Assembly: GCA_947487385.1 (NCBI GenBank)
Contig: CANKWU010000007.1
Location: 7,894 to 71,893 of the forward strand
Length of the DNA stretch: 64,000 nucleotides
Reading direction: 5' to 3'
Source: Spartobacteria bacterium
GTDB taxonomy: Bacteria > Verrucomicrobiota > Verrucomicrobiia > Chthoniobacterales > UBA6821
The first letter of the stretch is position 1. Each line of letters begins with the position of its first letter. Position numbers and translations under genes: made by a program. Below the pieces are notes generated by a model. The model did not search any database, was not told the DNA's origin, and saw nothing but the letters and a program-made list of their open reading frames with translations. Positions 7,632 through 54,701 of the stretch are shown one piece after another.

Positions 7632-8378
7632 ATGCTAGCAGATCCCTACACCCGAACATCAAGTGCCCCGCGCAGCGCTCGCGTCCGAGTTGCTCTCTGG
7701 GCCCTTGGGATCATCGCCCTCATCGAGTTGATCCTTGCCGCGATCGCTCTGGCTCCCCGTTTTGTTTCCGAAATACGATCCGGCACGTTCCCAGTGCAGG
7801 CTCTGGAAGCAGTATCATTGACCAATTCTGCTGCTCCTTTGATCCAACCAGCAACTCCACAGTTTCCTGCCTCTTTGCCTGTCAACCAGCAGGCCACAGC
7901 CACTTTACCAGTCAACTCCACGCTTAAGAAGATCCTAGCCGATCAGAAGGTAGAGACACCTTTCAGACAGCAACCTGCGGATGCGGCAGTCAGCGGGGAG
8001 ACATCCCTTAAGATCGTCAACGCTCGCCTCACCGATACCGAGGATGGGTCCAAGAGGCTTCAAGTAGCCATCAAGGCAAGCTCTCAGGAACAAATCGACA
8101 GCGCCCAGGAAAAGGTTCAGGTCTATTTCTATGATCAGGATGGCGATGAGATTGTTCCAAGCAAGGCACAGGTAACCTCCAAGTGGCTCAACTGGCAAAA
8201 TGGGGAGCCCCAGCTGGTTGAGGTGACTTATCTCCCCGAATCAATTGATCCCAGTGTCAAGTTTGCCGGATATGTCATCGCAGTCTATTACAAGGGGGAT
8301 CTTCAGGACTGCCGTGCTCAACCCGTACGGCTTCAGAAGCTTTTTGAGCCCAAGTACTATATCGGAACAGACGAGTGA
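7632..8378 (+). CDS. Hypothetical membrane-anchored protein
   Basis: The track ORF 7503..8378 starts at TTG inside htrA, so the first ATG at 7632 (MLADPYTR...) is preferred. It has one TM (VALWALGIIALIELILAAIALAP). No family recognised. Confidence 0.5.
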   Translation: MLADPYTRTSSAPRSARVRVALWALGIIALIELILAAIALAPRFVSEIRSGTFPVQALEAVSLTNSAAPLIQPATPQFPASLPVNQQATATLPVNSTLKKILADQKVETPFRQQPADAAVSGETSLKIVNARLTDTEDGSKRLQVAIKASSQEQIDSAQEKVQVYFYDQDGDEIVPSKAQVTSKWLNWQNGEPQLVEVTYLPESIDPSVKFAGYVIAVYYKGDLQDCRAQPVRLQKLFEPKYYIGTDE

Positions 8379-20507: not shown

Positions 20508-23000
20508 TTATCCTTGGTTAAACAGCGGCAACTCTGCCGTCGGGTCGGGGGCTCCCTGCATCTTACGACGTGTTCCGGCCAGGGTTGGACGTCCCTCGGC
20601 GTTAAGTTCCGTTTTTTCCAGATTTGTCAGGATCTCCCACGCCCGTTCAATCACCGCGGGGGGAAGTCCCGCCAGACGAGCCACCTGGATGCCGTAGCTC
20701 CGGTCGGCTGCCCCTTGGATGATTTTTCTGAGAAAAATGATCCGGTCGTTCTGCTCCCGAACAGCAACATTCAGATTCCGAACGCCAGAACGTGTACGGG
20801 CAAGATCGGGGAGTTCATGGTAGTGGGTCGCAAAGAAGGTGCGGCATCCGGTGATATCATGCAGATACTCCGCGACGCTCCAGGCGATCGAAAGTCCATC
20901 GAAAGTCGCGGTGCCGCGTCCGATCTCATCCAGCAGGACAAGACTCCGGGAAGTGCCGTTGTGGAGAATATTCGCCGTCTCGTTCATCTCGACCATGAAT
21001 GTCGAATGTCCCCTCGAGAGATCGTCACTAGCTCCAACCCGGGTGAAGATCCGATCAGTCACACCGATCCGGGCCGACTTAGCGGGAATCCAACTTCCCA
21101 TCTGGGCCATAACGGTGAGAAGGCCGACCTGCCGAAGGTAGGTCGATTTACCGGCCATGTTCGGTCCGGTAATGATGCCCATGCGATGGTTGGCCGCATC
21201 GAGATCGGTGTCATTCGGCACAAAGGACTCTCCGCCGGCACGCTGATCGAGCACAGGATGACGCCCCTCGTGAATCTCGAGCATCATGGAATCATCCACC
21301 ACGGGACGGGCATAGCCAAAGAGTCGAGCCGTCTCTGCCAACGAGCAAAGGGTGTCGAGCGCACCTGCCGATGCTGCCGTTTCCTGCAGAGGTCTCACCT
21401 GATCCAGGACGGCGGAGCGGAGGCGTTGGAAAATTTCAATCTCGAGCGCTTTTGCCCTTTCCTCGGAACCGAGGATCCTACCCTCCATCTCCTTCAGCTC
21501 CGGGGTGATGAACCGTTCCCCTCCGGCTGTTGTCTGCTTGCGGGTGTAGTCGCCGGGAACGCTCCCAAGATTCGCCGTGGTGATCTCGATGAAATAGCCG
21601 AAGACAGCATTGAAACGGACTTTCAACGACTTGATCCCGGTGCGCTCAATCTCCGTTTCCTGCAACGCGGCAATCCAGCCCTTTCCCTCGGTGGAAGCAT
21701 TCCGGAGTTCATCCAGAGCAGCATCGAATCCAGCACGGATAATTCCTCCCTCGCGGATTGTGGGAGGAGGTTCATCGACAAGTGCGGATTGAAGAAGAAC
21801 GGTAAGTTCCGGAAGCAGATGGAGATGCTCCCCGAGTTCTCCTAGGAGGCTCCCTCCACACGAGGCAAGCGTTTCTCTAAGGGAAGGCAATGATCCCAAA
21901 GAAGAAGACAGAGTGGCAAGGTCGCGGGCATTGCCGGAATTCTGACTAAGTCGGGAGATGGAGCGCTCGATGTCACGGATTCCGCCGAGTTGATCGCGCA
22001 GATCGCCCAGCTTAATCTCTGAGGAGATCAGAAAACCTATGGCATCCTGCCGTCCGGTGATCGCGGCAGGATCAATTAACGGGCGCAGAACCCAGTCACG
22101 CAAGGTGCGGGCTCCCATCGGTGTAACGGTCTTGTCGAGCGCCCCGAGAAGGGTCATCCCCCGTCCGGCCCTCGAAGAGACAAGTTCCAGATGTCCCTGA
22201 GTGGAGGCATCCAGCAGAAGATGCTCGGCCTGCCGATAGCCCCTGAGGGAACGGAGATGCCCAGCATCGCGGCGAAGCGTGCGGGTCAAGTAATGGAGGA
22301 GAGCGCCGGCGGCGGTGATTCCAGACGGAATGTCATTCACGCCGAAGCCGTCCAAGGAGTGAACTTTGAAATGGGAAAGCAGTATCTCCTTCGAGGCCAT
22401 CGGATCGAAGAGATAGGTCTCCACCTCCTCGGGCTCAGCGAAACCAAGGGGCAACTCTTTCAATAAATTCTTACTCCCCTCGGGAACAAGAATCTCAGCG
22501 GGAGACATGCGCACCACCTCGTCTAAGACCGCCTCGGCGGAAGAGAGCTCCGTAATGTGGAACTCGCCTGTACTCAGGTCCGCACAGGCAAGGCCGAAGA
22601 GACCCCCTTCCTTGGCCGGGGGAAGAATTGCTGCGGTGAAATTATGACTTTTCTCCTCGAGTCCTGCATCTTCCAGGGTGCCTGGGCTGAGAATGCGGGT
22701 GATCTCACGTCGAACAAGTTTTCCTGGCTGGACCTCTCCCACTTGCTCGCAGAAAGCGACACGGCGACCGGCAGCAAGCAGCTTCTCCATGTAGCCGCGT
22801 GCCGCATGATAGGGGACGCCGCACATCGGCACGTCGCCGCGCTTCGTGAGTGCCACATTCAGGATCGCCGAGGCCTCCTTGGCATCGTCGAAGAACATCT
22901 CATAAAAATCACCGAGACGAAAAAGCAGGAACGTCCCCGGCGGTAGGTCGCGCCGCAGGGCGTGATACTGCTTCATCATCGGCGTTCCCTCGGCGGCCAT
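20508..23000 (-). CDS. mutS: DNA mismatch repair protein MutS
   Basis: TPMMKQYHALR at the N-terminus, Walker A GPNMAGKSTYLRQ, and STFMVEM. Confidence 0.95.
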   Translation of the reverse strand: MAAEGTPMMKQYHALRRDLPPGTFLLFRLGDFYEMFFDDAKEASAILNVALTKRGDVPMCGVPYHAARGYMEKLLAAGRRVAFCEQVGEVQPGKLVRREITRILSPGTLEDAGLEEKSHNFTAAILPPAKEGGLFGLACADLSTGEFHITELSSAEAVLDEVVRMSPAEILVPEGSKNLLKELPLGFAEPEEVETYLFDPMASKEILLSHFKVHSLDGFGVNDIPSGITAAGALLHYLTRTLRRDAGHLRSLRGYRQAEHLLLDASTQGHLELVSSRAGRGMTLLGALDKTVTPMGARTLRDWVLRPLIDPAAITGRQDAIGFLISSEIKLGDLRDQLGGIRDIERSISRLSQNSGNARDLATLSSSLGSLPSLRETLASCGGSLLGELGEHLHLLPELTVLLQSALVDEPPPTIREGGIIRAGFDAALDELRNASTEGKGWIAALQETEIERTGIKSLKVRFNAVFGYFIEITTANLGSVPGDYTRKQTTAGGERFITPELKEMEGRILGSEERAKALEIEIFQRLRSAVLDQVRPLQETAASAGALDTLCSLAETARLFGYARPVVDDSMMLEIHEGRHPVLDQRAGGESFVPNDTDLDAANHRMGIITGPNMAGKSTYLRQVGLLTVMAQMGSWIPAKSARIGVTDRIFTRVGASDDLSRGHSTFMVEMNETANILHNGTSRSLVLLDEIGRGTATFDGLSIAWSVAEYLHDITGCRTFFATHYHELPDLARTRSGVRNLNVAVREQNDRIIFLRKIIQGAADRSYGIQVARLAGLPPAVIERAWEILTNLEKTELNAEGRPTLAGTRRKMQGAPDPTAELPLFNQG

Positions 23001-23068
23001 GGTTTAGGTGATTAGTCTGAAGACTGAAGGCTAAAGGCTGTTCACGAGCCACTCTAAGAATATCGATC

Positions 23069-23857
23069 CTAGGAATTGAGGAAAGCTGTCAGAGGACTGG
23101 TCGCAATGGCATGCTCGGCGGCCATGGGCAATCCGGCAGCCACCGCTTCAGCGGCCCCCTCGACAGCCATCCGGAAAGCACGGGCCATGCGGACTGGATC
23201 ACCTGCGACGGCAATCGCGGTATTAACCAGTACGGCATCGGCCCCTAACTCCAAGGCCTCGGCTGCATGGCTAGGCGCTCCGATTCCCGCATCGACGATG
23301 ACAGGCACCGTCGCCTGCTCGATGATGATGGAGATTTGATGACGAGTCTCGAGGCCCCGGTTGCTCCCGATCGGTGAACCAAGCGGCATGACCGTCGCGG
23401 CTCCCGCTTCCTGCAGGCGCTTGGCCAGAACAGGGTCAGCATTGATGTAAGGAAGAACAGTGAACCCTTCAGCCACCAGCATCTCTGTCGCTTTCAGTGT
23501 CTCAATGGGATCTGGAAGCAGGTAGCGGGGGTCGGGATGGATCTCTAGCTTTACCCACTTCGGCAGACCTGCGGACGCGGAGAGGTGTGCCAGACGAAGA
23601 GCCTCCTCTGCCGTATTGGCGCCACTAGTGTTGGGAAGGAGGAGGTATTTCTCAGGGTCAATGAACTCCAGGATATTGGCAAAGGGATCTCCCTTCCCGG
23701 AGAGATCGGCACGGCGGAGCGCCACAGTAACGACCTGGGTGCCACTCGCGGCCAACGCCTCACTCATGACGGAGGCAGAGGAAAACTTTCCAGTTCCCAG
23801 AAAAAGGCGCGAGGAAAACTCACGCCCGGCAATGATCAGTGGCGATGCTGCAGACAT
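23069..23857 (-). CDS. thiG: Thiazole synthase
   Basis: [37 protein letters not shown] and VIVDAGIG are canonical ThiG motifs. Confidence 0.9.
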
Positions 23858-24126
23858 TTCCCCTATGCTATTGGTGAAGTGGCAACCCGTGCAAGAAACC
23901 CCGACAGTGGGAGTTTTAAATATGGTATTGCTTGCGTGCTAAAGCGTCAGGAACTCAAAAAGGGAATCTAGGCAACCGCTGAATCAATCTTAGCGAGGCG
24001 CGCTGCTTGGAATTCTGAAACTAAGGCAAGGTGATTGGGAGGGAGCGTGTGAAAATCTACCCCAACTCCTCTCCTCTCGCCAGCAGTGCACTTTTTGGAC
24101 AGCCTCTTACGGATCAACTTACCCCG

Positions 24127-26244
24127 ATGATATCCCTCAGAAAGTCTTTGGTTCCGCGATCCATCGGACAGCGTTTTGCATTGGCCATCGGGACCGGGGC
24201 CTCTGGCATCCTGATCGCACTAGCATTAGTGAATTTCATTAACGGGAGTGAGTTGCTCTTGAATCAAGCCTCACAAGAGGCGATCAGGCAGGTCCATAAT
24301 GAGATTGGCAACTGGGACGACCAAATCGAACGGATCGGAATGCTTCCGAGGGTCATCGGAGCAATCGAGGTAGATAGTCAAAGCCAGGTAACAATCCCCT
24401 TGCTGGCAACCCTGCTAAAACGTACCACCGGCAACAGCGTCTTCGGCCTTTACATGTATCGTGAGGATTTAGACTGGCATGATCCCAAGTCGTACAGCTG
24501 GGTTAACCTCAAGAGTTGGCCCAATGCCGCATCCCCTACATACCTTGCTTACGACTTTCATGATCCTACGCAAGATTGGTATCGGGGAGCGAAGGAGGGC
24601 AAAGGACTGCACGTTACTCTCCCCTATTTTGCTGCGGGCGGCTCAGAAATCAACATGATCAGCATCACTAAGGCTGTACGCGATCCCTCCGGAAAATTCA
24701 TTGGAGTGGCAGGAGCCGATGTTTCCATGGAAGAAATGGAAAAGATGATCCGGGAGATGGATCTCCGTGATTTTGGGACAAATCGTTTTGTTAAAAACGA
24801 TGATCCCAAGAGTGCTAACTCAACAAGGATGGAGAAATATCCCGTCCAATCCTCCTACCTGATCTCAAAAACAGGCGCAGTGATCATCGGTCCCGGAATC
24901 GAAACAGAAAAGAGGGCTCGCAAACCGGGGTATCAGCATCCTGAAGAAAGCATGGAAACCCTTGCTGACCATGGCCTGCAACTCGCCCCTGAACATCTCT
25001 CGCAGATTCTCTCCACAGAGACCGGTTGGCTGCGTGTCGAACAAAATGGAGACAAGCTGATTTGTTGGGCTCAAAGCAAGATTACCGGATGGAAACTTAT
25101 TCGATCGGTTCCCTACAGCATGATCATTGCGCCAGCCAGTCACTTGGCATCGGAATCTCTTGTGATTGGAGGGGTCGGGCTTTTTGTGCTGATCGGTGTC
25201 GTGTTCTTCACTGCTCGCAGGATCTCGGAACCGATCACATCACTCCAGTCCGTCGCCACAAACTTTGAGCGCGGTTCCTATGATAAAGGGAGAGATGTAC
25301 TCAGCCGGATCGAAAAACGCCCCGACGAGCTGGGTCGGTTTGCCAAGAGCTTCTCCGCCATGGCGCAGGAAATCCACCTGAGGGAAGAGAGACTCTCGGA
25401 GTGGAACACCAACCTGGAAGTGACGGTGAAAGAACGAACTTCCGATCTGGCTGCCGCCATGTCCAAAGTCGAGAAAGTGAATGCCGCCATGGAGGCTGAA
25501 CTTGCAGAGGCAGCAGCTTACTCCCGTGCCGTACTGCCTGGGAAACTGACCACGCCCGTCACCACCGACTGGGTATTCATCTCTTCTTCGCAGCTCGGTG
25601 GGGATTCCTTCGGTTATCACTGGATCGACGACGACACCTTCTCCCTTTATCTGCTCGATGTCTGCGGTCACGGCGTGGGGGCGGCCTTGCTCTCCACTAG
25701 CGTGGTGAATGTCCTCCGCTCCTCCTCCCTTGCTGACACAAACTTCCTAGATCCTGCAAATGTTCTTGCTCAACTGAATGCCGCTTTCCCGATGGAGCGG
25801 CATAACGACATGTATTTTACTGCCTGGTATGGAGTCTACACCCTCTCCAACGGCACCCTGCGCTTCGCCTGCGGCGGACACCCTCCCGCCGTGCTCGTTG
25901 CGCCGGATGGAACGATCTCCAATTTGACTGCCAAGGGCACCGTCGTAGGGGCCTTCCCCAATCCCACCTACGAAACGGCTTCGACTGAAGTAACGCCGGG
26001 CTCCAGACTCTATCTTTTCAGTGACGGAACCTATGAAATCGATCGCCCCGACTCCACAATGATGACCCATCAGGAGTTTTCCGAAATCCTCAAAGCTCCC
26101 GTCACAACAGGAACTTCCAAACTGGAAACTGTTGTCATGGAGGTGCGGAAACAGCAGCAAAAGGAGGCCTTCGCGGATGATTTCTCATTGGTGGAGTTTC
26201 TCTTCCCCGATCACAACATCCCTCCCACGGCCTCCTCGGAGTGA
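24127..26244 (+). CDS. Membrane sensor: periplasmic Cache-like domain + HAMP + PP2C/SpoIIE serine phosphatase (RsbU-like), kinase domain lost
   Basis: Two TMs flank an extracytoplasmic domain of about 300 aa. An HAMP/coiled coil follows (RPDELGRFAKSFSAMAQEI), then a SpoIIE-type phosphatase (GGDSFGYHW...LLDVCGHGVGAALLS...LYLFSDG). The start is taken at ATG 24127 by alignment with the paralog. Confidence 0.8.
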   Translation: MISLRKSLVPRSIGQRFALAIGTGASGILIALALVNFINGSELLLNQASQEAIRQVHNEIGNWDDQIERIGMLPRVIGAIEVDSQSQVTIPLLATLLKRTTGNSVFGLYMYREDLDWHDPKSYSWVNLKSWPNAASPTYLAYDFHDPTQDWYRGAKEGKGLHVTLPYFAAGGSEINMISITKAVRDPSGKFIGVAGADVSMEEMEKMIREMDLRDFGTNRFVKNDDPKSANSTRMEKYPVQSSYLISKTGAVIIGPGIETEKRARKPGYQHPEESMETLADHGLQLAPEHLSQILSTETGWLRVEQNGDKLICWAQSKITGWKLIRSVPYSMIIAPASHLASESLVIGGVGLFVLIGVVFFTARRISEPITSLQSVATNFERGSYDKGRDVLSRIEKRPDELGRFAKSFSAMAQEIHLREERLSEWNTNLEVTVKERTSDLAAAMSKVEKVNAAMEAELAEAAAYSRAVLPGKLTTPVTTDWVFISSSQLGGDSFGYHWIDDDTFSLYLLDVCGHGVGAALLSTSVVNVLRSSSLADTNFLDPANVLAQLNAAFPMERHNDMYFTAWYGVYTLSNGTLRFACGGHPPAVLVAPDGTISNLTAKGTVVGAFPNPTYETASTEVTPGSRLYLFSDGTYEIDRPDSTMMTHQEFSEILKAPVTTGTSKLETVVMEVRKQQQKEAFADDFSLVEFLFPDHNIPPTASSE
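25480..25849 (+). repeat. Near-identical 370-bp block shared with 28236..28605 (gene-conversion tract)
   Basis: By manual alignment at constant offset 2756 there are 4 mismatches in 370 bp. The flanking homologous sequence is clearly more diverged. Confidence 0.85.
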
Positions 26245-26270
26245 ATGCCTAACTAAGAAAGCGTTAACTC

Positions 26271-26385
26271 ATCGAATCTCTCCGCGAGAGGAACCAAATG
26301 CCATCCGCTTCAGCGACCGTGGCAATGCGTTCAACCTGCTTGATCGGGACGCAGTCGAGGCAGACAAACCCGATCGAGCGATTTC
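26271..26385 (+). pseudogene. Fossil of an RsbW-like HATPase_c kinase domain (out of frame, after the stop of the upstream gene)
   Basis: The segment is alignable to 29169..29273 of the paralog. It translates in another frame to AIRFSDRGNAFNLLDRDAVEADKP, against ITIRFSDHGNPFNPLDRDEVDTDKP in the intact copy. Confidence 0.8.
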
Positions 26386-26736
26386 CTAGGCCACTGAGGA
26401 GCCGATCGCAACGAGTGCCTCGTCCCGCGTAGCGCAGACGGGATACGCGGTCTCAAACTGAGCGATATCGAAAATTCTTTTCACAGAAGGCTGGAGGGCA
26501 CAAACGGCCAAACCCCCACCGACCCGCTGCAACTGCCTCCCAAGCAGGAAGAACTCGCGAAAACCAGCACTACTCACGTACTCAAGACCAGCTAGGTCGA
26601 ACACAACACCTTTAGAGCCACATGACTCGATCTCCTTAGCCACGGAGTCCTTGATCATGTTCTGCTCGGTTGCATCAAGACGCCCTTTGAGTACTACGAC
26701 AAGGATGGGACCGGCTTTTTCGAATTGCAAATCCAT
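26386..26736 (-). CDS. STAS-domain anti-sigma-factor antagonist (RsbV/SpoIIAA-like)
   Basis: 116 aa. VVVLKGRLDA...VVFDLAGLEYVSSAGFREF places the phosphorylatable Ser in the D-x-x-x-x-x-x-S-S-x-G context. Confidence 0.85.
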   Translation of the reverse strand: MDLQFEKAGPILVVVLKGRLDATEQNMIKDSVAKEIESCGSKGVVFDLAGLEYVSSAGFREFFLLGRQLQRVGGGLAVCALQPSVKRIFDIAQFETAYPVCATRDEALVAIGSSVA

Positions 26737-26867
26737 AATTCAGATTAACTCAAAACGCTCCGAGGTCAAGTACTGCTCTCTCAATGTGTCGCAAGCAGAG
26801 GCAAACAGCGCCTGAGCATCCGCTTGGCATTGACCCATGGATAAACTATCACTTGCCTAAGAAGCAA

Positions 26868-29411
26868 ATGTCCATGCTCTCTCTGAAACATTATCTAACA
26901 CCCCGATCAATCGGGCAGCAGTTCGCCCTCACCATCGGAGCCGGAGCAGGTGTGATCCTGATCGTCTTGGCAGTAGCCAACTACATCAGTGGCAGGGAGC
27001 TGCTTCTCCAGCAAACTTCACAGGAGGCACTCCGGGCGGTAAATGACGAGATCAACACGATGGATGATCTCGTCGAGAAGATGGCGATGTATCCCGAGGT
27101 CATCGCCGCCACAGAACTCTCCGGCACGAATAACGAGGGAGTTAAGGTTCCATGGCTCTCCTCTCTGCTCGTGCACTCGCCGATGCCTGCCATCTACGGG
27201 GTCTACATGGCCAGAGATTCCAAGCACTGGCAGGATCCCGATTCCGACCCGTGGGTTGACCGCAAGAGCTGCCCAAATCCGGCACACCTGAAGTACGACT
27301 TCCATGATGAGAGTCAGGACTGGTACATCGGGGCAAAGGAGGACAAAAGACTCCATGTGACTCAGCCTTATTTTGATGCGGGAGGCTCAGACATCGACAT
27401 GATCAGCATTACCAAGCCCGTTTACTCAGACGAAGGAACCTTCGTTGGGGTGGCAGGCGTCGATGTGGCTCTGGACGAAATGCGAAAAATCGTCCGGAAA
27501 ATTAACATTAGGGATTATGAAACGGATCTGACTCAGGGCGATGGGGGCGGCAAGGTCACCCTCTCTCCGAAGAGTCAGACCGTGGGTGTGCAGGAACCGC
27601 ATGAAACGGCCTATCTGGTCTCCCAAAGTGGCGCGATCATCGTCAGTCCCGAGACATCGCAGGAAAAACCTGCTTCGAAATCTGGCGAACAGGATCCGAC
27701 CAAGGCCCTGGAAGACCTGCTCAGCAACGGACTGGTCACCAGCGTTCCCGGCATCCAGAAGATTCTGGCCTCGGACAGCGGATGGCAGCGCCTCAAGGAT
27801 GGAAGTAACAAGGTGATTTACTGGGCCAAGGGCAGGACCACCGGATGGAAACTGGTGCTGGAAGTGCCTTACGAACTCATCGTGGCTCCGGCCAGAAAAT
27901 TAGCAGAACAGTCGGCGATCATCGGTGGGGCGGGGCTTTTTGTGCTGATCGGTGTCGTGTTCTTCACATCCCGCAGGGTTTCGGAGCCCATTACCGAGCT
28001 TCAGACCGTGGCTACCTCGTTTGAGAAAGGAAGCTATGACGGCGGGGCGGGGATTCTGGAACGGATCGAAAAACGCCCCGACGAGCTGGGTCGGTTTGCC
28101 AAGAGCTTCTCCGCCATGGCGCAGGAAATCCGCCTGAGGGAAGAGCGTCTCTCGGAATGGAATGCCAATCTCGAACAGACAGTCAAGGACCGCACCGCCG
28201 ACCTCGCCGCAGCCATGGAGAAGGTCAAGACGGTCAATGCCGCCATGGAGGCGGAACTTGCAGAGGCAGCAGCTTACTCCCGTGCCGTACTGCCTGGGAA
28301 ACTGACCACGCCCGTCACCACCGACTGGGTATTCATCTCTTCTTCGCAGCTCGGTGGTGATTCCTTCGGTTATCACTGGATCGACGACGACACCTTCTCC
28401 CTTTATCTGCTCGATGTCTGCGGTCACGGCGTGGGGGCTGCCTTGCTCTCCACTAGCGTGGTGAATGTCCTCCGCTCCTCCTCCCTTGCTGACACAAACT
28501 TCCTAGATCCTGCAAATGTTCTTGCTCAACTGAATGCCGCTTTCCCGATGGAGCGGCATAACAACATGTATTTTACTGCCTGGTATGGAGTCTACACCCT
28601 CTCCACCGGCATCCTACGCTTTGCCAGCGGTGGTCACCCTCCCGCCGTATTGATCGCTCCAGACGGAAACGTGCTTCATCTCTCAGCCAAGGGCGCGGTC
28701 GTGGGAGCCTTCCCCAAGCCCATCTACGAAACGGCTTTGACTCAAGTTGTGCCGGGCTCCAGACTCTATCTTTTCAGTGACGGAACCTATGAAATCGATC
28801 GCCCCGACTCCACAATGATGACGCACGAGGAATTCTCCATTATCCTCAAGGATCCTGTTGCAACAGGAACCCGTAAACTGGAATCTGTCGTCATGGAGGT
28901 GCGACAACAGCAGCAAAAGGAAGCCTTCGCTGATGATTTCTCATTGGTGGAGTTTCTCTTCCCCGATAACCAGCCTGCGTCCCATGGGGTCCTCCGATTG
29001 AAGGCCGAACTTAGCGAACTGACACGACTCCACCCGTTTCTCACCTCCTACTGCGAGAAAGAAGGTACCCCTACGGAGCAGATCTTCGACTTCGAGGTCA
29101 TCCTCGAGGAACTCGTCACCAATGTCATCAAATACGGTTGTGTTCAGGCCGGGAAGGAATGCTGCCTCATCGAACTTCTCCGCGAGGGAAACCAAATCAC
29201 CATCCGCTTCAGCGACCATGGCAATCCGTTCAACCCACTTGATCGGGACGAAGTCGACACAGACAAACCGATTGAGGAACGCGAGATCGGAGGCCTCGGC
29301 ATCCACTTCATCAAGAATCTCACCGACTCACAGAGCTACGAATACAAGGATGGAATGAACATCCTCACTCTCAACGTAACATTCACTACTTTAGCTAATG
29401 TTGATGCCTGA
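26868..29411 (+). CDS. Membrane sensor: Cache-like + HAMP + PP2C/SpoIIE phosphatase fused to C-terminal RsbW-like serine kinase (HATPase_c)
   Basis: Architecture matches 24127..26244. It adds a C-terminal domain of about 140 aa with an N-box EELVTNVIKYG, DHGNPFNP and GGLGIHFIKNL. Confidence 0.8.
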   Translation: MSMLSLKHYLTPRSIGQQFALTIGAGAGVILIVLAVANYISGRELLLQQTSQEALRAVNDEINTMDDLVEKMAMYPEVIAATELSGTNNEGVKVPWLSSLLVHSPMPAIYGVYMARDSKHWQDPDSDPWVDRKSCPNPAHLKYDFHDESQDWYIGAKEDKRLHVTQPYFDAGGSDIDMISITKPVYSDEGTFVGVAGVDVALDEMRKIVRKINIRDYETDLTQGDGGGKVTLSPKSQTVGVQEPHETAYLVSQSGAIIVSPETSQEKPASKSGEQDPTKALEDLLSNGLVTSVPGIQKILASDSGWQRLKDGSNKVIYWAKGRTTGWKLVLEVPYELIVAPARKLAEQSAIIGGAGLFVLIGVVFFTSRRVSEPITELQTVATSFEKGSYDGGAGILERIEKRPDELGRFAKSFSAMAQEIRLREERLSEWNANLEQTVKDRTADLAAAMEKVKTVNAAMEAELAEAAAYSRAVLPGKLTTPVTTDWVFISSSQLGGDSFGYHWIDDDTFSLYLLDVCGHGVGAALLSTSVVNVLRSSSLADTNFLDPANVLAQLNAAFPMERHNNMYFTAWYGVYTLSTGILRFASGGHPPAVLIAPDGNVLHLSAKGAVVGAFPKPIYETALTQVVPGSRLYLFSDGTYEIDRPDSTMMTHEEFSIILKDPVATGTRKLESVVMEVRQQQQKEAFADDFSLVEFLFPDNQPASHGVLRLKAELSELTRLHPFLTSYCEKEGTPTEQIFDFEVILEELVTNVIKYGCVQAGKECCLIELLREGNQITIRFSDHGNPFNPLDRDEVDTDKPIEEREIGGLGIHFIKNLTDSQSYEYKDGMNILTLNVTFTTLANVDA
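28236..28605 (+). repeat. Partner of the 25480..25849 near-identical block
   Basis: See 25480..25849. Confidence 0.85.
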
Positions 29412-32851: not shown

Positions 32852-34264
32852 TTAGATCTTGCGGAGCTGAATCGAATCAAACTTCTCATCCCCCTCAACG
32901 ATGTCGCTCATCACGATGAGCTGATCACCTTTGTTCAGGAGGCCACGGGAAAGAAGAAGTTCTTCTGCCTTTTTGACAGATTCCTCGGGAGTCGCCCCGA
33001 ATGGCATCACGAGCGGCATGACGCCCCAGTTGAGCGTGAGATGACGGGCCGTCACTTCCGAAGGGGTGATGGCGTAGATGGTTGCGTGCTCGGGACGGAT
33101 GTGGCTGGTGTAGTCGGCCATGTCGCCGTGGCGGGTCAAGACGGCAATGCTGGCATTCGCAAAGGAGTTAGCCAGCACGACACCGGAGTGTGCGGTCTTC
33201 TGGCGGGGAGTCAGCAGGGAGGTCTGCTCGGCAAAGTGGGCGCTGCCGCTACGCTCAATACGACGTGCGATCCGGTCGAGGACCTTCACGCAATCGATGG
33301 GATATTTCCCGACGGTAGTTTCTCCACTGAGCATGATGGCATCAGCCTGCTCAAAGACTGCGTTGGCGACATCGGTCACCTCGGCGCGGGTCGGGACAGG
33401 ATTTTCGATCATCGACTCCAGCATGTGCGTGGCGACAATGACCTGCTTGCCGATCTTAAGAGCTATCTTGAGAATCTTGCGCTGGATGATGGGCAGTTCC
33501 TCCATCGGGCATTCGATGCCGAGATCTCCACGGGCGATCATGACGGCATCGGTCTCCTTGATGATCTCGGCGATCAGCTTGACGGCGCTCTGATCCTCGA
33601 TCTTCGCGATGACGCGGGCCTTGCTGTTATGGAGAGCCAACACACGGCGCATCTCGACGACGTCCGAAGGTTCGCGACAGAAACTCAGGGCGACAAAGTC
33701 GACGCCCACCTCGGTGCCGACAGCAATATCAGCAAGGTCTTTTTCCGTGAGGGGGGGGAGATTGACCTTCACTCCCGGCAGATTGATATGCCTGCGGGAA
33801 CCAAGCGCTCCCGGTGTGAGTACCTCGCAGCGGATACGGTTATTGATCTTGGAAAGAACCTTGAGATGGATGACGCCATTGTCCACAAGGACCACGTCCC
33901 CCTCGTTGATGTCGTCGATCAGGCCGTCGTAGTTAACGTTGACGGAATAGAGCTCCTCACTGCGGGCACCACGGACGGTGAACTCCATGATGTCCCCAAC
34001 CTTGAGATTAAGTTTCGTCGGGAGGTCGCCGGTGCGGACAGCAGGACCCTGTGTGTCGAGGAGGATACCTACCGGCATATCAAGCTCGGCAGCGATCCCC
34101 CTGATGGTCGGGACGATCTGGCGCACCCAATCATGCTGGGCATGGCTCATGTTGAGCCTGAAGATATTGGTTCCAGCCAGGATCATCTCGCGAAGACGCT
34201 CCGGAGACTCGGTCGCAGGGCCTAGGGTACAGATAATTTTGGTTTTACGAAGAGCAATGGTCAT
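32852..34264 (-). CDS. pyk: Pyruvate kinase
   Basis: RKTKIICTLGPA, NMSHAQH and MIARGDLGIE. The start is taken at ATG 34264 (MTIALRKTKI). Confidence 0.9.
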   Translation of the reverse strand: MTIALRKTKIICTLGPATESPERLREMILAGTNIFRLNMSHAQHDWVRQIVPTIRGIAAELDMPVGILLDTQGPAVRTGDLPTKLNLKVGDIMEFTVRGARSEELYSVNVNYDGLIDDINEGDVVLVDNGVIHLKVLSKINNRIRCEVLTPGALGSRRHINLPGVKVNLPPLTEKDLADIAVGTEVGVDFVALSFCREPSDVVEMRRVLALHNSKARVIAKIEDQSAVKLIAEIIKETDAVMIARGDLGIECPMEELPIIQRKILKIALKIGKQVIVATHMLESMIENPVPTRAEVTDVANAVFEQADAIMLSGETTVGKYPIDCVKVLDRIARRIERSGSAHFAEQTSLLTPRQKTAHSGVVLANSFANASIAVLTRHGDMADYTSHIRPEHATIYAITPSEVTARHLTLNWGVMPLVMPFGATPEESVKKAEELLLSRGLLNKGDQLIVMSDIVEGDEKFDSIQLRKI

Positions 34265-48348: not shown

Positions 48349-49560
48349 TTAGTCTAGGCTGGAGAGACGATCCTGCAGCGGTGAGATGGGATGGAAAACA
48401 GCCGTCTTGGTTGGGGAAAGGGAGATGTCGGTGGCGTTGAGTCGTTCAACCTTGGATAAGATGTCGCGTACCTCTGCAAGAGTTGCCAAGGAGGCTAGGA
48501 ATGAATCGGCACGCCGCGTCCAGAGCCTATTCAGTGTTGGCCAGACAAAGAGGGCCAAAAAGCACCATGTCGTCATAACGGCTGCTCCGCATAGCCCTGC
48601 CTGCACCGGATTTATGCTTGGCAGAAGAGATGCCGCTAAAATTCCCAGCAATGTCCAAACCGCCACGATGACCAGGATTAGGATCCACGCTCCCGATCTG
48701 CGGTAATATTCCTCACGGGCTACAAGAAGGGCAGCCTCACGCGGGGTGAGCCATTGCGCGACTGTGGTCGAGAGGGAAAGGACTCCCCGGGGGGAGATGC
48801 AACCGTTCACCGTTTCTTCATCGCCATGATCGAACCAGCGAACTGGTCTCAAGGTGATCTTCAGCGGTTTCAGCTCGAACTCAAGATTCTCCTCAAAAGC
48901 TTTCTCTAAAGAGCCTGCATCAGATGGACGGCCAGCAGGGACAAACAGAAAAAGGATCAAAATGAACGCTCCCGCGGCGAGCAGCATCGGCACAGCCCAT
49001 TGCCGAGGAACTTGATGAAACGCGGCGAAGAAAAGAAACCCAGTCCAGAGCCCCGCTAACGTGAGCAACCGGTTTCGCACCCAATCCTTCAGCCAACCAG
49101 TTTCATATTCCACGATACGATTCGCCGCACTTTCCAGGGCGCTGCCCATTAGAAGGTCAAAAGGGAGGTTCGCCAGAGTTATCAGCAGCGCCACCGAAAG
49201 TAAAACCGCCGGGACCGCTACTGGACCGGAGAGGCCACTTGCCCACCACGATGCACTGAGGGCAAGCCCCCAGATCAGCGCAAGATTGGCTCCGATCGAT
49301 GTGATGCCCGCCCAAAGACGAACGCGCTGGTAGTTACTAGGATCCACCGTGGTAGTTTGTGCAATAGAAAAGGCCGGGTCAATGACCCGGTCGCCGTCGG
49401 TTCGCTGCTTTGAAAAGACCCTCTTAACCCTGGAGAGGCAGTCGTGCGTCACTATGATAGCTCCTGCGTTGGAGGTTGTTGGATGTTTCGAATCTTTATT
49501 AGCCCAAGTATCCCAACTCTCCTCCACATGAACAACCTCCAGAAACTTCACACCTAACAC
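48349..49560 (-). CDS. Polytopic membrane protein, M48/M56-peptidase-like but lacking HExxH
   Basis: Multiple TMs. LTPREAALLVAREEYYRRSG occupies the position and context of the ...E..AVLAHElgH... zinc motif, and the C-terminus FHPISPLQDRL resembles the HPP...R tail of M48 peptidases. The true start is uncertain. Confidence 0.45.
   Translation of the reverse strand: MLGVKFLEVVHVEESWDTWANKDSKHPTTSNAGAIIVTHDCLSRVKRVFSKQRTDGDRVIDPAFSIAQTTTVDPSNYQRVRLWAGITSIGANLALIWGLALSASWWASGLSGPVAVPAVLLSVALLITLANLPFDLLMGSALESAANRIVEYETGWLKDWVRNRLLTLAGLWTGFLFFAAFHQVPRQWAVPMLLAAGAFILILFLFVPAGRPSDAGSLEKAFEENLEFELKPLKITLRPVRWFDHGDEETVNGCISPRGVLSLSTTVAQWLTPREAALLVAREEYYRRSGAWILILVIVAVWTLLGILAASLLPSINPVQAGLCGAAVMTTWCFLALFVWPTLNRLWTRRADSFLASLATLAEVRDILSKVERLNATDISLSPTKTAVFHPISPLQDRLSSLD
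49268..49390. repeat. Left copy of a 123-bp diverged direct repeat (within the 5' part of the membrane-protein gene)
   Basis: It matches 54542..54664. The first 29 bp are identical, then 72 of 94 match with no indels (manual count). Confidence 0.85.
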
Positions 49561-53503: not shown

Positions 53504-54604
53504 ATGATTCGCTCCTTGCGGTTCTCAATGCTGGGGGTGCTTTTATTGCTGGGATGTCATCCCTCTGCACCATCCAGCGGTATGGTTTTGATCCCCGGTG
53601 GTGACTTCTTGATGGGCTCAGACGCTCCGTATGCTTTACCCAACGAGAGACCGGCTCATCAGGTGAAGGTAAAGCCCTTCTTCATGGACATTCATGCGGT
53701 CACCAATGCCGAATTTGCAAAATTCGTGAAAACCACCGGCTATATCACCGTTGGAGAGCGACCCGTCGATTGGGAGGAATTAAAAAAACAAGTGCCACCA
53801 GAAACGCCTAAGCCACCCGCCGAGACCCTTGCGCCTGGGTCGTTGGTTTTTCATCCAACCACGGGGCCTGTTGATTTACGTGATATGTCTGCGTGGTGGC
53901 AATGGCTCAATGGCGCCTCGTGGTCTCATCCAGAGGGACCCGACAGCAATATCATCGGCAGGGAAAACCACCCAGTGGTGCACATTGCTTGGGAGGATGC
54001 AAAAGCCTATGCGGCTTGGGCTGGGAAACGCCTCCCCACCGAGGCTGAATGGGAATTTGCAGCCAGGGGCGGAGTCAACGGAGAGCGCTACGCATGGGGT
54101 AACCAAGAGAGTCCTGACGGGCGTTTTATGCTGAATCGTTGGACCGGACAATTTCCCTACCACGATGATGCCTCGGATGGTTTTGCCGGCACCTCGCCAG
54201 TCGGCACTTTCCCATCAAATAGCTTCGGGCTTTATGACATGGGAGGCAATGTGTGGAACTGGTGCAGCGATATCTATCGCGCCGATGCCTTTGCTGAGGA
54301 GGCCAAAGCCGGCCTTGTTTGTTGTGACCCCACCGGGCCCAAAACCTTACAGGGTGAGAAAGCCGTTCTAGGTGACCCTTCCCCACCCATGGTTCCAGGA
54401 GCAGAACGAAGAGTGACCAAAGGAGGGTCTTTTCTCTGCCATCCCGACTACTGCGAAAGCTATCGCCCCTCCGCAAGACGTGGCACTCCACCTGACACGG
54501 GGAGTAGCCATGTTGGCTTTCGCTGCGCCAAGGATGCGAGTCCCCAGATCAGCGCAAGATTGGCTCCGATGGAGGTGATGCCAGACCAGAGGCGGGCGCG
54601 TTGA
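53504..54604 (+). CDS. Formylglycine-generating enzyme (SUMF1/FGE family sulfatase maturase)
   Basis: HPVVHIAWEDAKAYAAWAGKRLPTEAEWEFAARGG, RVTKGGSFLC and GFRCA. The last ~22 codons run into the right repeat copy. Confidence 0.9.
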   Translation: MIRSLRFSMLGVLLLLGCHPSAPSSGMVLIPGGDFLMGSDAPYALPNERPAHQVKVKPFFMDIHAVTNAEFAKFVKTTGYITVGERPVDWEELKKQVPPETPKPPAETLAPGSLVFHPTTGPVDLRDMSAWWQWLNGASWSHPEGPDSNIIGRENHPVVHIAWEDAKAYAAWAGKRLPTEAEWEFAARGGVNGERYAWGNQESPDGRFMLNRWTGQFPYHDDASDGFAGTSPVGTFPSNSFGLYDMGGNVWNWCSDIYRADAFAEEAKAGLVCCDPTGPKTLQGEKAVLGDPSPPMVPGAERRVTKGGSFLCHPDYCESYRPSARRGTPPDTGSSHVGFRCAKDASPQISARLAPMEVMPDQRRAR

Positions 54605-54664
54605 TAGTTGACTGGATCCACCGGGATAGTTTGTAAAAAAGAGAAGGCCAGGTCATTGACCCGG
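54542..54664 (-). pseudogene. Orphan fragment homologous to the 5' region of the 48349..49560 gene (right copy of the direct repeat)
   Basis: The minus-strand translation is RVNDLAFSFLQTIPVDPVNYQRARLWSGITSIGANLALIWG. The intact gene reads RVIDPAFSIAQTTTVDPSNYQRVRLWAGITSIGANLALIWG. No downstream continuation exists. Confidence 0.75.
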
Positions 54665-54701
54665 CCTTCTTCGTGAATTTGCGCTCTGGGAGAGCTGAAG
54701 A

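Follow-up and report, generated by a model that had tools for sequence, protein, structure and literature searches.

The locus described here raises the question of why two neighbouring signalling genes, whose sensor halves are only distantly alike, should carry blocks of almost the same DNA in their output halves. The genes, called g1 and g2 below, encode sensor phosphatases and lie in tandem in a 64,000-nt stretch (the window; positions 7,894 to 71,893 of contig CANKWU010000007.1, assembly GCA_947487385.1) of a Spartobacteria bacterium. The host population, an uncultured freshwater Verrucomicrobiota (Chthoniobacterales / 'Spartobacteria'), is recorded solely in metagenome assemblies. We conclude, with a probability of roughly 90%, that the near-identical blocks were left by repeated ectopic gene conversion, a non-reciprocal form of homologous recombination, between these same-strand genes 2.76 kb apart. 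An earlier note on the sequence had already proposed gene conversion, and the proposal is borne out by an uneven sliding-window identity, by the lack of synonymous constraint among orthologs and by incongruent segment trees. We would add two points to it: the main tract and a shorter block upstream of it (block A) were copied in the direction g2 to g1, and the mosaic records several events of different ages.

We recounted the mismatches at the constant g1/g2 offset of 2756 bp. Between 25480-25849 and 28236-28605 there are 4 mismatches in 370 bp (at 25497, 25602, 25683 and 25807), the same number that had been counted by hand before. The true start of the tract is placed at 25498, because 25497 is a fixed paralog-specific difference in both the window strain and a sister strain. 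The 70-bp block reported as identical, 25306-25375 against 28062-28131, indeed has no mismatch (0/70). A third stretch had been described as identical over 25994-26064; position 25994 is a mismatch, while the rest of the claim holds, the exact run being 25995-26066. The longest exact g1/g2 run in the window is 123 bp. The homology around the blocks is much more diverged, as had been stated: we count 29 differences in 104 bp (28%) at 25376-25479, 37 in 144 bp (26%) at 25850-25993 and 43 in 135 bp in the 5′ flank (25171-25305). The sensor halves, which were said to remain distinct, share a nucleotide identity of only ~58%. The tract lies at the start of the PP2C domain, where the earlier note had put it; the motifs GGDSFGYHW and LLDVCGHGVGAALLS occur in the translations of both g1 and g2, and both proteins match the Pfam SpoIIE/PP2C family. 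The statement that conversion homogenised the catalytic core needs narrowing. It holds for the HAMP end, the helix that leads into PP2C and roughly the first half of PP2C itself, but the second half (25850-25993) is still paralog-specific in both strains.

Along the two genes the sliding-window identity is strongly non-uniform, and the flat profile that would have contradicted conversion is absent. Identity is 0.97-1.0 within the blocks, at third codon positions too, and 0.45-0.8 elsewhere. Outside the blocks, third-codon-position identity is 0.3-0.6 even where the protein is conserved at 80%. At positions where both proteins have the same amino acid, the same codon is used in 113 of 116 cases in the tract versus 148 of 285 elsewhere (Fisher p = 6e-22). 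Up to 52 synonymous codons in a row are identical, a length that none of 100,000 permutations reached (maximum 43; permutation p < 1e-5). A sharp-edged, high-identity tract thus sits within diverged homology, which is the form that gene conversion takes. Checking for GC-biased conversion, we found that the GC content of the tract (0.56) and its GC content at third codon positions (0.63) are not above those of the flanks, a result that is neutral and not contrary. A third paralog was sought as donor, and tblastn and blastn searches of the window with g1 matched g2 alone.

To which gene did the shared sequence belong originally? Orthologous loci were drawn from genome and metagenome collections, the useful close relatives being reached through protein-cluster and exact-protein look-ups. 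A scan of metagenome contigs with g1 returned no locus with both g1 and g2 and supplied a partial g1-type ortholog, L090. Every relative examined has MutS(-), ThiG(-) and STAS(-), followed by a single sensor-PP2C gene (+). This gene is of g2 type at L002, L003, L085, L005-L007 and L084 (sensor protein ~80% identical to g2) and of g1 type at L119, L120/L121, L122 and L090 (sensor 70-78% identical to g1). Both sensor types are found together only in the window and in its sister strain, in the order ThiG, g1, STAS, g2, and it is g2 that holds the conserved STAS-adjacent slot in which relatives keep their single sensor-PP2C gene.

Compared with a g1-type (L119) and a g2-type (L002) ortholog, g1 switches its allegiance from segment to segment (Table 1). 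Therefore, the main tract and block A are g2 sequence copied into g1, with an island of original g1 sequence left between them. Bootstrapped neighbour-joining trees of the segments, in which L004 was not included, are incongruent between the tract and its flanks. The sensor tree groups g1 with the g1-type orthologs (100% bootstrap). In the tract tree, g1 and g2 are united in a single clade (100%) that falls within the g2-type orthologs (85%), and this nesting shows that the tract passed from g2 to g1. For the 72-bp exact run farther downstream (block B), the g1+g2 clade receives 80% bootstrap.

Table 1. Features of the g1/g2 locus in window positions, with the nucleotide identity of g1 segments to a g1-type and a g2-type ortholog
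Feature	Position	Strand	Description	Identity to L119 (g1-type)	Identity to L002 (g2-type)
Gene 1 (g1)	24031..26244	+	737 aa; dCache sensor, HAMP, PP2C/SpoIIE phosphatase (RsbU-like)		
g1 sensor				0.80-0.83	0.54-0.61
g1 5′ flank of block A	25171..25305			0.88	0.64
Block A	25306..25375	+	70 bp, 0 mismatches vs 28062-28131; HAMP domain end; g2 descent	0.75	0.94
Unconverted island	25376..25497	+	Original g1 sequence; HAMP-PP2C linking helix; partner 28132-28253; identities for 25376-25479	0.83	0.73
Main conversion tract	25498..25849	+	352 bp, 3 mismatches; partner 28254-28605; PP2C start incl. GGDSFGYHW and DVCGHG; g2 descent	0.74	0.82
Second diverged patch	25850..25994	+	Second half of PP2C domain; partner 28606-28750; paralog-specific in both strains		
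Block B	25995..26066	+	72-bp exact run, identical to 28751-28822		
Older conversion layer	26067..26211	+	PP2C domain end; partner 28823-28967; 84% identical, 23 differences / 145 bp; identities for 26067-26220	0.57	0.71
Decayed RsbW-like kinase remnant	26245..26385	+	Non-coding, 3′ of g1 stop; homologous to parts of g2 29001-29300		
STAS anti-sigma-factor antagonist gene	26386..26736	-	RsbV-like, 116 aa, between g1 and g2		
Gene 2 (g2)	26784..29411	+	875 aa from first ATG; called from 26868 = 847 aa		

When did the copying take place? The sister strain (strain B, locus L117), which comes from a different study, is 98.1-98.5% identical to the window strain (strain A) and has both genes with the same block boundaries. 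At the tract sites 25515, 25599, 25697 and 25698, both paralogs of strain A share one state and both paralogs of strain B share another. The A allele is derived with respect to most outgroups at 25515 and with respect to all 13 outgroups at 25697. The A paralogs differ at 4 of the 370 tract positions, whereas orthologs differ between the strains at 9-10 of 370; paralogs are thus closer to each other than to the orthologs of a close genome, as in concerted evolution, with the limit that the strain B assembly may be partly collapsed. In the tract tree, g1 of strain A pairs with g2 of strain A (94% bootstrap). Because the A paralogs pair, share derived alleles and differ less than the orthologs do, homogenisation must have gone on after the two strains split. 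Strain B has a 257-bp exact run between g1 and g2. Five sites specific to its g1 are clustered at 25799-25833, mostly with outgroup-like states, which suggests an earlier end of the tract in B compared with A.

The remaining segments show other ages. The trees of both diverged patches join each gene to its ortholog in the other strain (100% bootstrap). At 26067-26220, g1 and g2 form a clade (99%) and the orthologs are still paired between the strains (100%); the synonymous divergence (dS) between g1 and g2 is 0.59 here, against >1.4 to the orthologs. We take 26067-26211 as an older layer because the paralogs form a clade while orthologs pair between strains and dS has reached 0.59. Taken together, the sequence comparisons date the overwriting of g1 by g2 to about the time when the two 98%-identical strains diverged.

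The g1 gene is followed by a further trace of g2. The kinase remnant behind its stop codon is frameshifted by 1 bp near 26213 and has lost ~141 bp internally. Its positions 26301-26370 form a 70-bp direct repeat with 29200-29269 that is 90% identical; their identity to the kinase domains of g2-type orthologs is no more than 78-81%. Since the remnant is closer to g2 than to those orthologs, the g1 3′ end must once have had its own copy of the kinase domain of g2, now decayed. The g1 gene is a chimera, with a g1-type sensor on an output half that was repeatedly rewritten from the resident g2.

Could selection or a single founding event explain the same pattern? Purifying selection on nucleotides, through an embedded RNA or DNA element or a codon-level constraint, might keep the tract identical without exchange. 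The most conserved catalytic motifs are indeed encoded in the tract, and g2-type orthologs vary unusually little in block A (dS 0.2 to L002). However, tract dS is 0.033 between g1 and g2 and ~1.0 between g2 and its closest orthologs (L002 and L085) over the same codons, so that nucleotide-level constraint is excluded. This ortholog dS is the same as or above that of the rest of the gene, and 18-20% of the tract nucleotides distinguish g2 from its orthologs (L002, L085 and others). The earlier note had itself named synonymous constraint among orthologs as fatal to conversion; instead, the identity of the paralogs reaches synonymous sites in the very codons in which orthologs diverge normally. 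Selection also fails to predict strain-specific substitutions that are common to both paralogs. We regard this explanation as already refuted by the ortholog comparison and give it practically no chance. A single recent chimeric origin is the other candidate: a copy of the g2 3′ half (HAMP end, PP2C and kinase) would have been joined to a foreign g1-type sensor, and the identity would reflect the youth of the copy. The kinase remnant does show that more than PP2C was once copied from g2, and all relatives have a single sensor gene at the locus, so some rearrangement or acquisition made the two-gene state. But one event predicts one age, and the g1-g2 dS spans 0-0.03 in the blocks and tract, 0.6-0.7 at 26067-26220 and 25850-25993, and saturation in the island. 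The island (25376-25497), with its g1-type ancestry, sits inside the supposedly copied region, and the allele sharing within strains shows exchange after the strain split. As a full account, the single origin is therefore quite improbable; it may describe the oldest layer.

A metagenome-assembly artefact would have an assembler merge the paralogs where they are similar, and so exaggerate or invent their near-identity. The window is a metagenome contig, and all its exact runs are at most 123 bp, below the usual maximum assembly k of 127-141. In addition, L001, a 228-kb scaffold of the same strain, contains a 761-bp perfect g1/g2 repeat whose edges fall at the outer identical blocks, as would result from popped graph bubbles. 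Against this, collapse leaves no differences, and the window keeps 4 isolated mismatches; it lacks the perfect identity of a collapsed repeat, which assemblers unable to reuse k-mers would not reproduce. The window is reproduced at 100% over 22.5 kb in L082 (ENA contig k141_3092841) and in L083 (a JGI contig). The name k141_... has the form used by MEGAHIT for contigs at k = 141. An assembler of this type has no way of using one k-mer in two places, and with a longest exact run of 123 bp it meets no shared 141-mers here. The same block boundaries recur in a second strain, from another study, that has substitutions of its own. Moreover, the tract has a coherent g2-type ancestry, which an artefact need not show. 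We hold an artefact to be very improbable indeed, and the window tract is almost certainly not one.

Some points do weigh against repeated conversion as we describe it. All the sequences are metagenome assemblies, assemblers can homogenise near-identical repeats, and the comparison is one of assembled sequence. L117 and L001 have record names of one format ('..._METAG-scaffold_N') and may come from a single pipeline. The identity of the strain B paralogs (the 257-bp run) could be partly artificial, with isolated single-nucleotide polymorphisms collapsed. In view of this possible collapse, the case for conversion after the split rests mainly on the derived alleles at 25515 and 25697 in the well-resolved A copies; that shared-derived-allele argument is independent of any collapse in strain B. 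Finally, one gene pair fits a single long event with patchy repair and several short events alike.

How did gene conversion produce this mosaic? An earlier round of copying from g2 covered the 3′ end of g1, leaving the layer at 26067-26211 and the frameshifted kinase remnant. Later, g2 overwrote g1 at 25306-25375 and 25498-25849, with further homogenisation in the window strain. The transfer probably took the form of RecA-type homologous recombination, with direct repeats 2.76 kb apart as partners. The output halves (HAMP end, linker and PP2C) are similar enough to recombine, while the sensor halves are very different; because the latter (~58%) probably have no stretches of the identity that recombination needs, conversion would have been limited to the output half. 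The process may be self-reinforcing, as each conversion would restore identity and ease the next one. Since original g1 sequence survives between converted blocks, we infer that short events took place separately or that a single heteroduplex underwent patchy mismatch repair. The outcome would presumably be a pair of RsbU-like phosphatases that are tuned differently but nearly alike in their catalytic N-terminal half, and that act on the one STAS protein encoded between them.

Other gene callers start g1 at 24049 (731 aa), and an exact copy of its protein is present in public records. The protein matches Pfam SpoIIE (4.9e-39), MCP-like_PDC_1, dCache_1 and HAMP, and has no kinase domain. The architecture of g2 is that of g1 plus a C-terminal fused RsbW-like kinase domain (HATPase_c_2 at ~29001-29372); its Pfam matches are SpoIIE (3e-37) and HATPase_c_2 (4e-19), and the NCBIfam RsbW matches are weak. 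The two phosphatases score 134.7 and 128.9 bits against PF07228 (cut-off 25), and the metal-site motifs GGDSF and DVCGHG of PP2C/SpoIIE phosphatases can be read in the translations. The gene between them (26386..26736) is the sole STAS gene of this three-gene module. Its product matches TIGR00377 at 63.4 bits (cut-off 53.45) and also Pfam STAS, and its translation includes LEYVSSAGFREF, with an SSAG motif holding the conserved serine. A STAS antagonist and an RsbW-like kinase, here fused to g2, are thus adjacent, as in partner switching. On these matches, we assign the locus to a putative module of the partner-switching type, made up of a pair of sensor phosphatases, a single STAS protein and a fused kinase. 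The STAS protein is presumed to be the common substrate of the g1 and g2 phosphatases. A search confined to the immediate neighbours found no sigma factor or other output target among them; the downstream genes encode a 136-aa protein and a trypsin-like protease. Elsewhere in the window, a 138-nt direct repeat of 80% identity joins 49262-49399 and 54536-54673, one copy in a minus-strand open reading frame and the other overlapping the end of a plus-strand one. It seems unrelated to the g1/g2 conversion and may be a chance match.

The locus also differs among relatives in its gene content. Across the syntenic loci (window 20508-29411; L002-L007, L084, L085, L119, L120 and L122), the flanking genes are 88-96% identical; despite this, the two sensor types share only 47-50% protein identity. 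This suggests that sensor modules were replaced or acquired like cassettes at the MutS-ThiG-STAS slot. At L002, L003 and L085, as in g2, the RsbW-like kinase is fused to the sensor phosphatase. Among L005, L006, L084, L119 and L122, the sensor phosphatase stops after PP2C and a separate PP2C + kinase gene comes next, which at L119 and L122 begins with a receiver domain. The kinase fusion could be a product of recombination between the two PP2C domains.

How does the locus compare with known systems? Classic examples of paralog conversion in bacteria are tufA/tufB in Salmonella, the rRNA operons and the PE/PPE genes of Mycobacterium tuberculosis. There is good documentation of ectopic conversion and of concerted evolution among bacterial paralogs (PMC6053082, PMC8022953, PMC12046097, PMC13061034). 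The present case resembles known ones in its non-reciprocal copying within one genome, in its sharp-edged tracts of tens to hundreds of bp and in paralogs that are closer than orthologs within the tract; the extent also appears to vary among close strains. Unlike the classic cases, in which whole genes of the same function are homogenised, only part of each multi-domain signalling gene is affected here, and the sensors belong to two old lineages. We consider the locus a new, unusually legible instance of a known process, ordinary bacterial gene conversion, and not a new kind.

On the signalling side, the Chlamydia belong to the same superphylum as this bacterium, and chlamydial RsbU has a periplasmic sensor domain. 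Chlamydiota and Waddliaceae homologs are among the relatives that we found. PMC11619594 presents chlamydial RsbU as the sensor phosphatase of an RsbU-RsbV-RsbW-type partner-switching system. As in modules of this kind, a membrane sensor phosphatase with a PP2C output adjoins a STAS antagonist and an RsbW-like kinase; unlike in them, there are two sensor phosphatases per STAS gene, and the kinase is fused to the g2 C-terminus. Similarity to characterised RsbU-type members is low, with all NCBIfam equivalog matches far below their cut-offs. The best PDB sequence matches are the PP2C domain of Rv1364c of M. tuberculosis (3ke6), Pseudomonas RssB (3es2, 3eq2) and the 'putative serine phosphatase' 6k4e, which we take to be P. 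aeruginosa SiaA; dCache chemoreceptor sensors are also matched. All four structures have the SpoIIE-type PP2C domain in common with g1 and g2, but their input domains differ, and the weak matches (E 1e-14 to 1e-5) do not extend beyond PP2C. Rv1364c combines phosphatase and kinase in one chain.

Two assemblies raise the question of whether conversion still continues. Outside the tract, L001 differs from the window at 1 site in the 21.6 kb compared, namely position 33600 (A in the window, T in L001). At L001 14102-14720 (= window 28132-28750), all 71 of the 71 differing g2 sites have the g1 allele, which makes up the 761-bp exact g1/g2 repeat. Either g1 very recently converted g2 here, or the assembler collapsed a repeat. 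The six groups of differences, although separate, all match the same donor, as one event would give, and this favours conversion; the position of the repeat edges at the outer identical blocks favours collapse. The idea that the g2 patches of the window, instead of those of L001, are the derived ones was rejected, because strain B shares the window g2 alleles at those sites and the window state is thus ancestral. The second assembly, L118, is a 1.1-kb JGI contig with the g1 3′ flank, and its positions 1-510 correspond to window 25751-26260. Across 25850-26211 it is like the g2 of strain B, with 1/144 and 2/145 differences to that gene versus 36 and 24 to the g1 of strain B. This suggests a longer g2-to-g1 tract in another strain, although L118 may be a chimeric short contig. 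Tentatively, and at somewhat worse than even odds, we suggest that conversion is still segregating in wild populations in both directions (L001, L118), and that the whole locus is a cassette system in which recombination in the conserved STAS and HAMP/PP2C flanks lets species swap two old sensor types at a single conserved MutS-ThiG-STAS slot.

The locus does not change what is known of gene conversion or of partner switching. Trees of the PP2C domain of such paralogs will mislead, and assemblies of the locus disagree in exactly the converted region. Public metagenome data are enough to identify donor and recipient, to rank the events by age and to recognise an island that escaped conversion. 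The locus is a clean, well-controlled case of domain-restricted concerted evolution, in which the sensors remain different and a portion of the common output domain is kept nearly identical. If conversion is indeed segregating and bidirectional, its rate, tract length and direction would be measurable against point mutation in an uncultured freshwater Verrucomicrobium; if the locus is a cassette system, it would represent a modular rewiring of sensor input in a partner-switching pathway.

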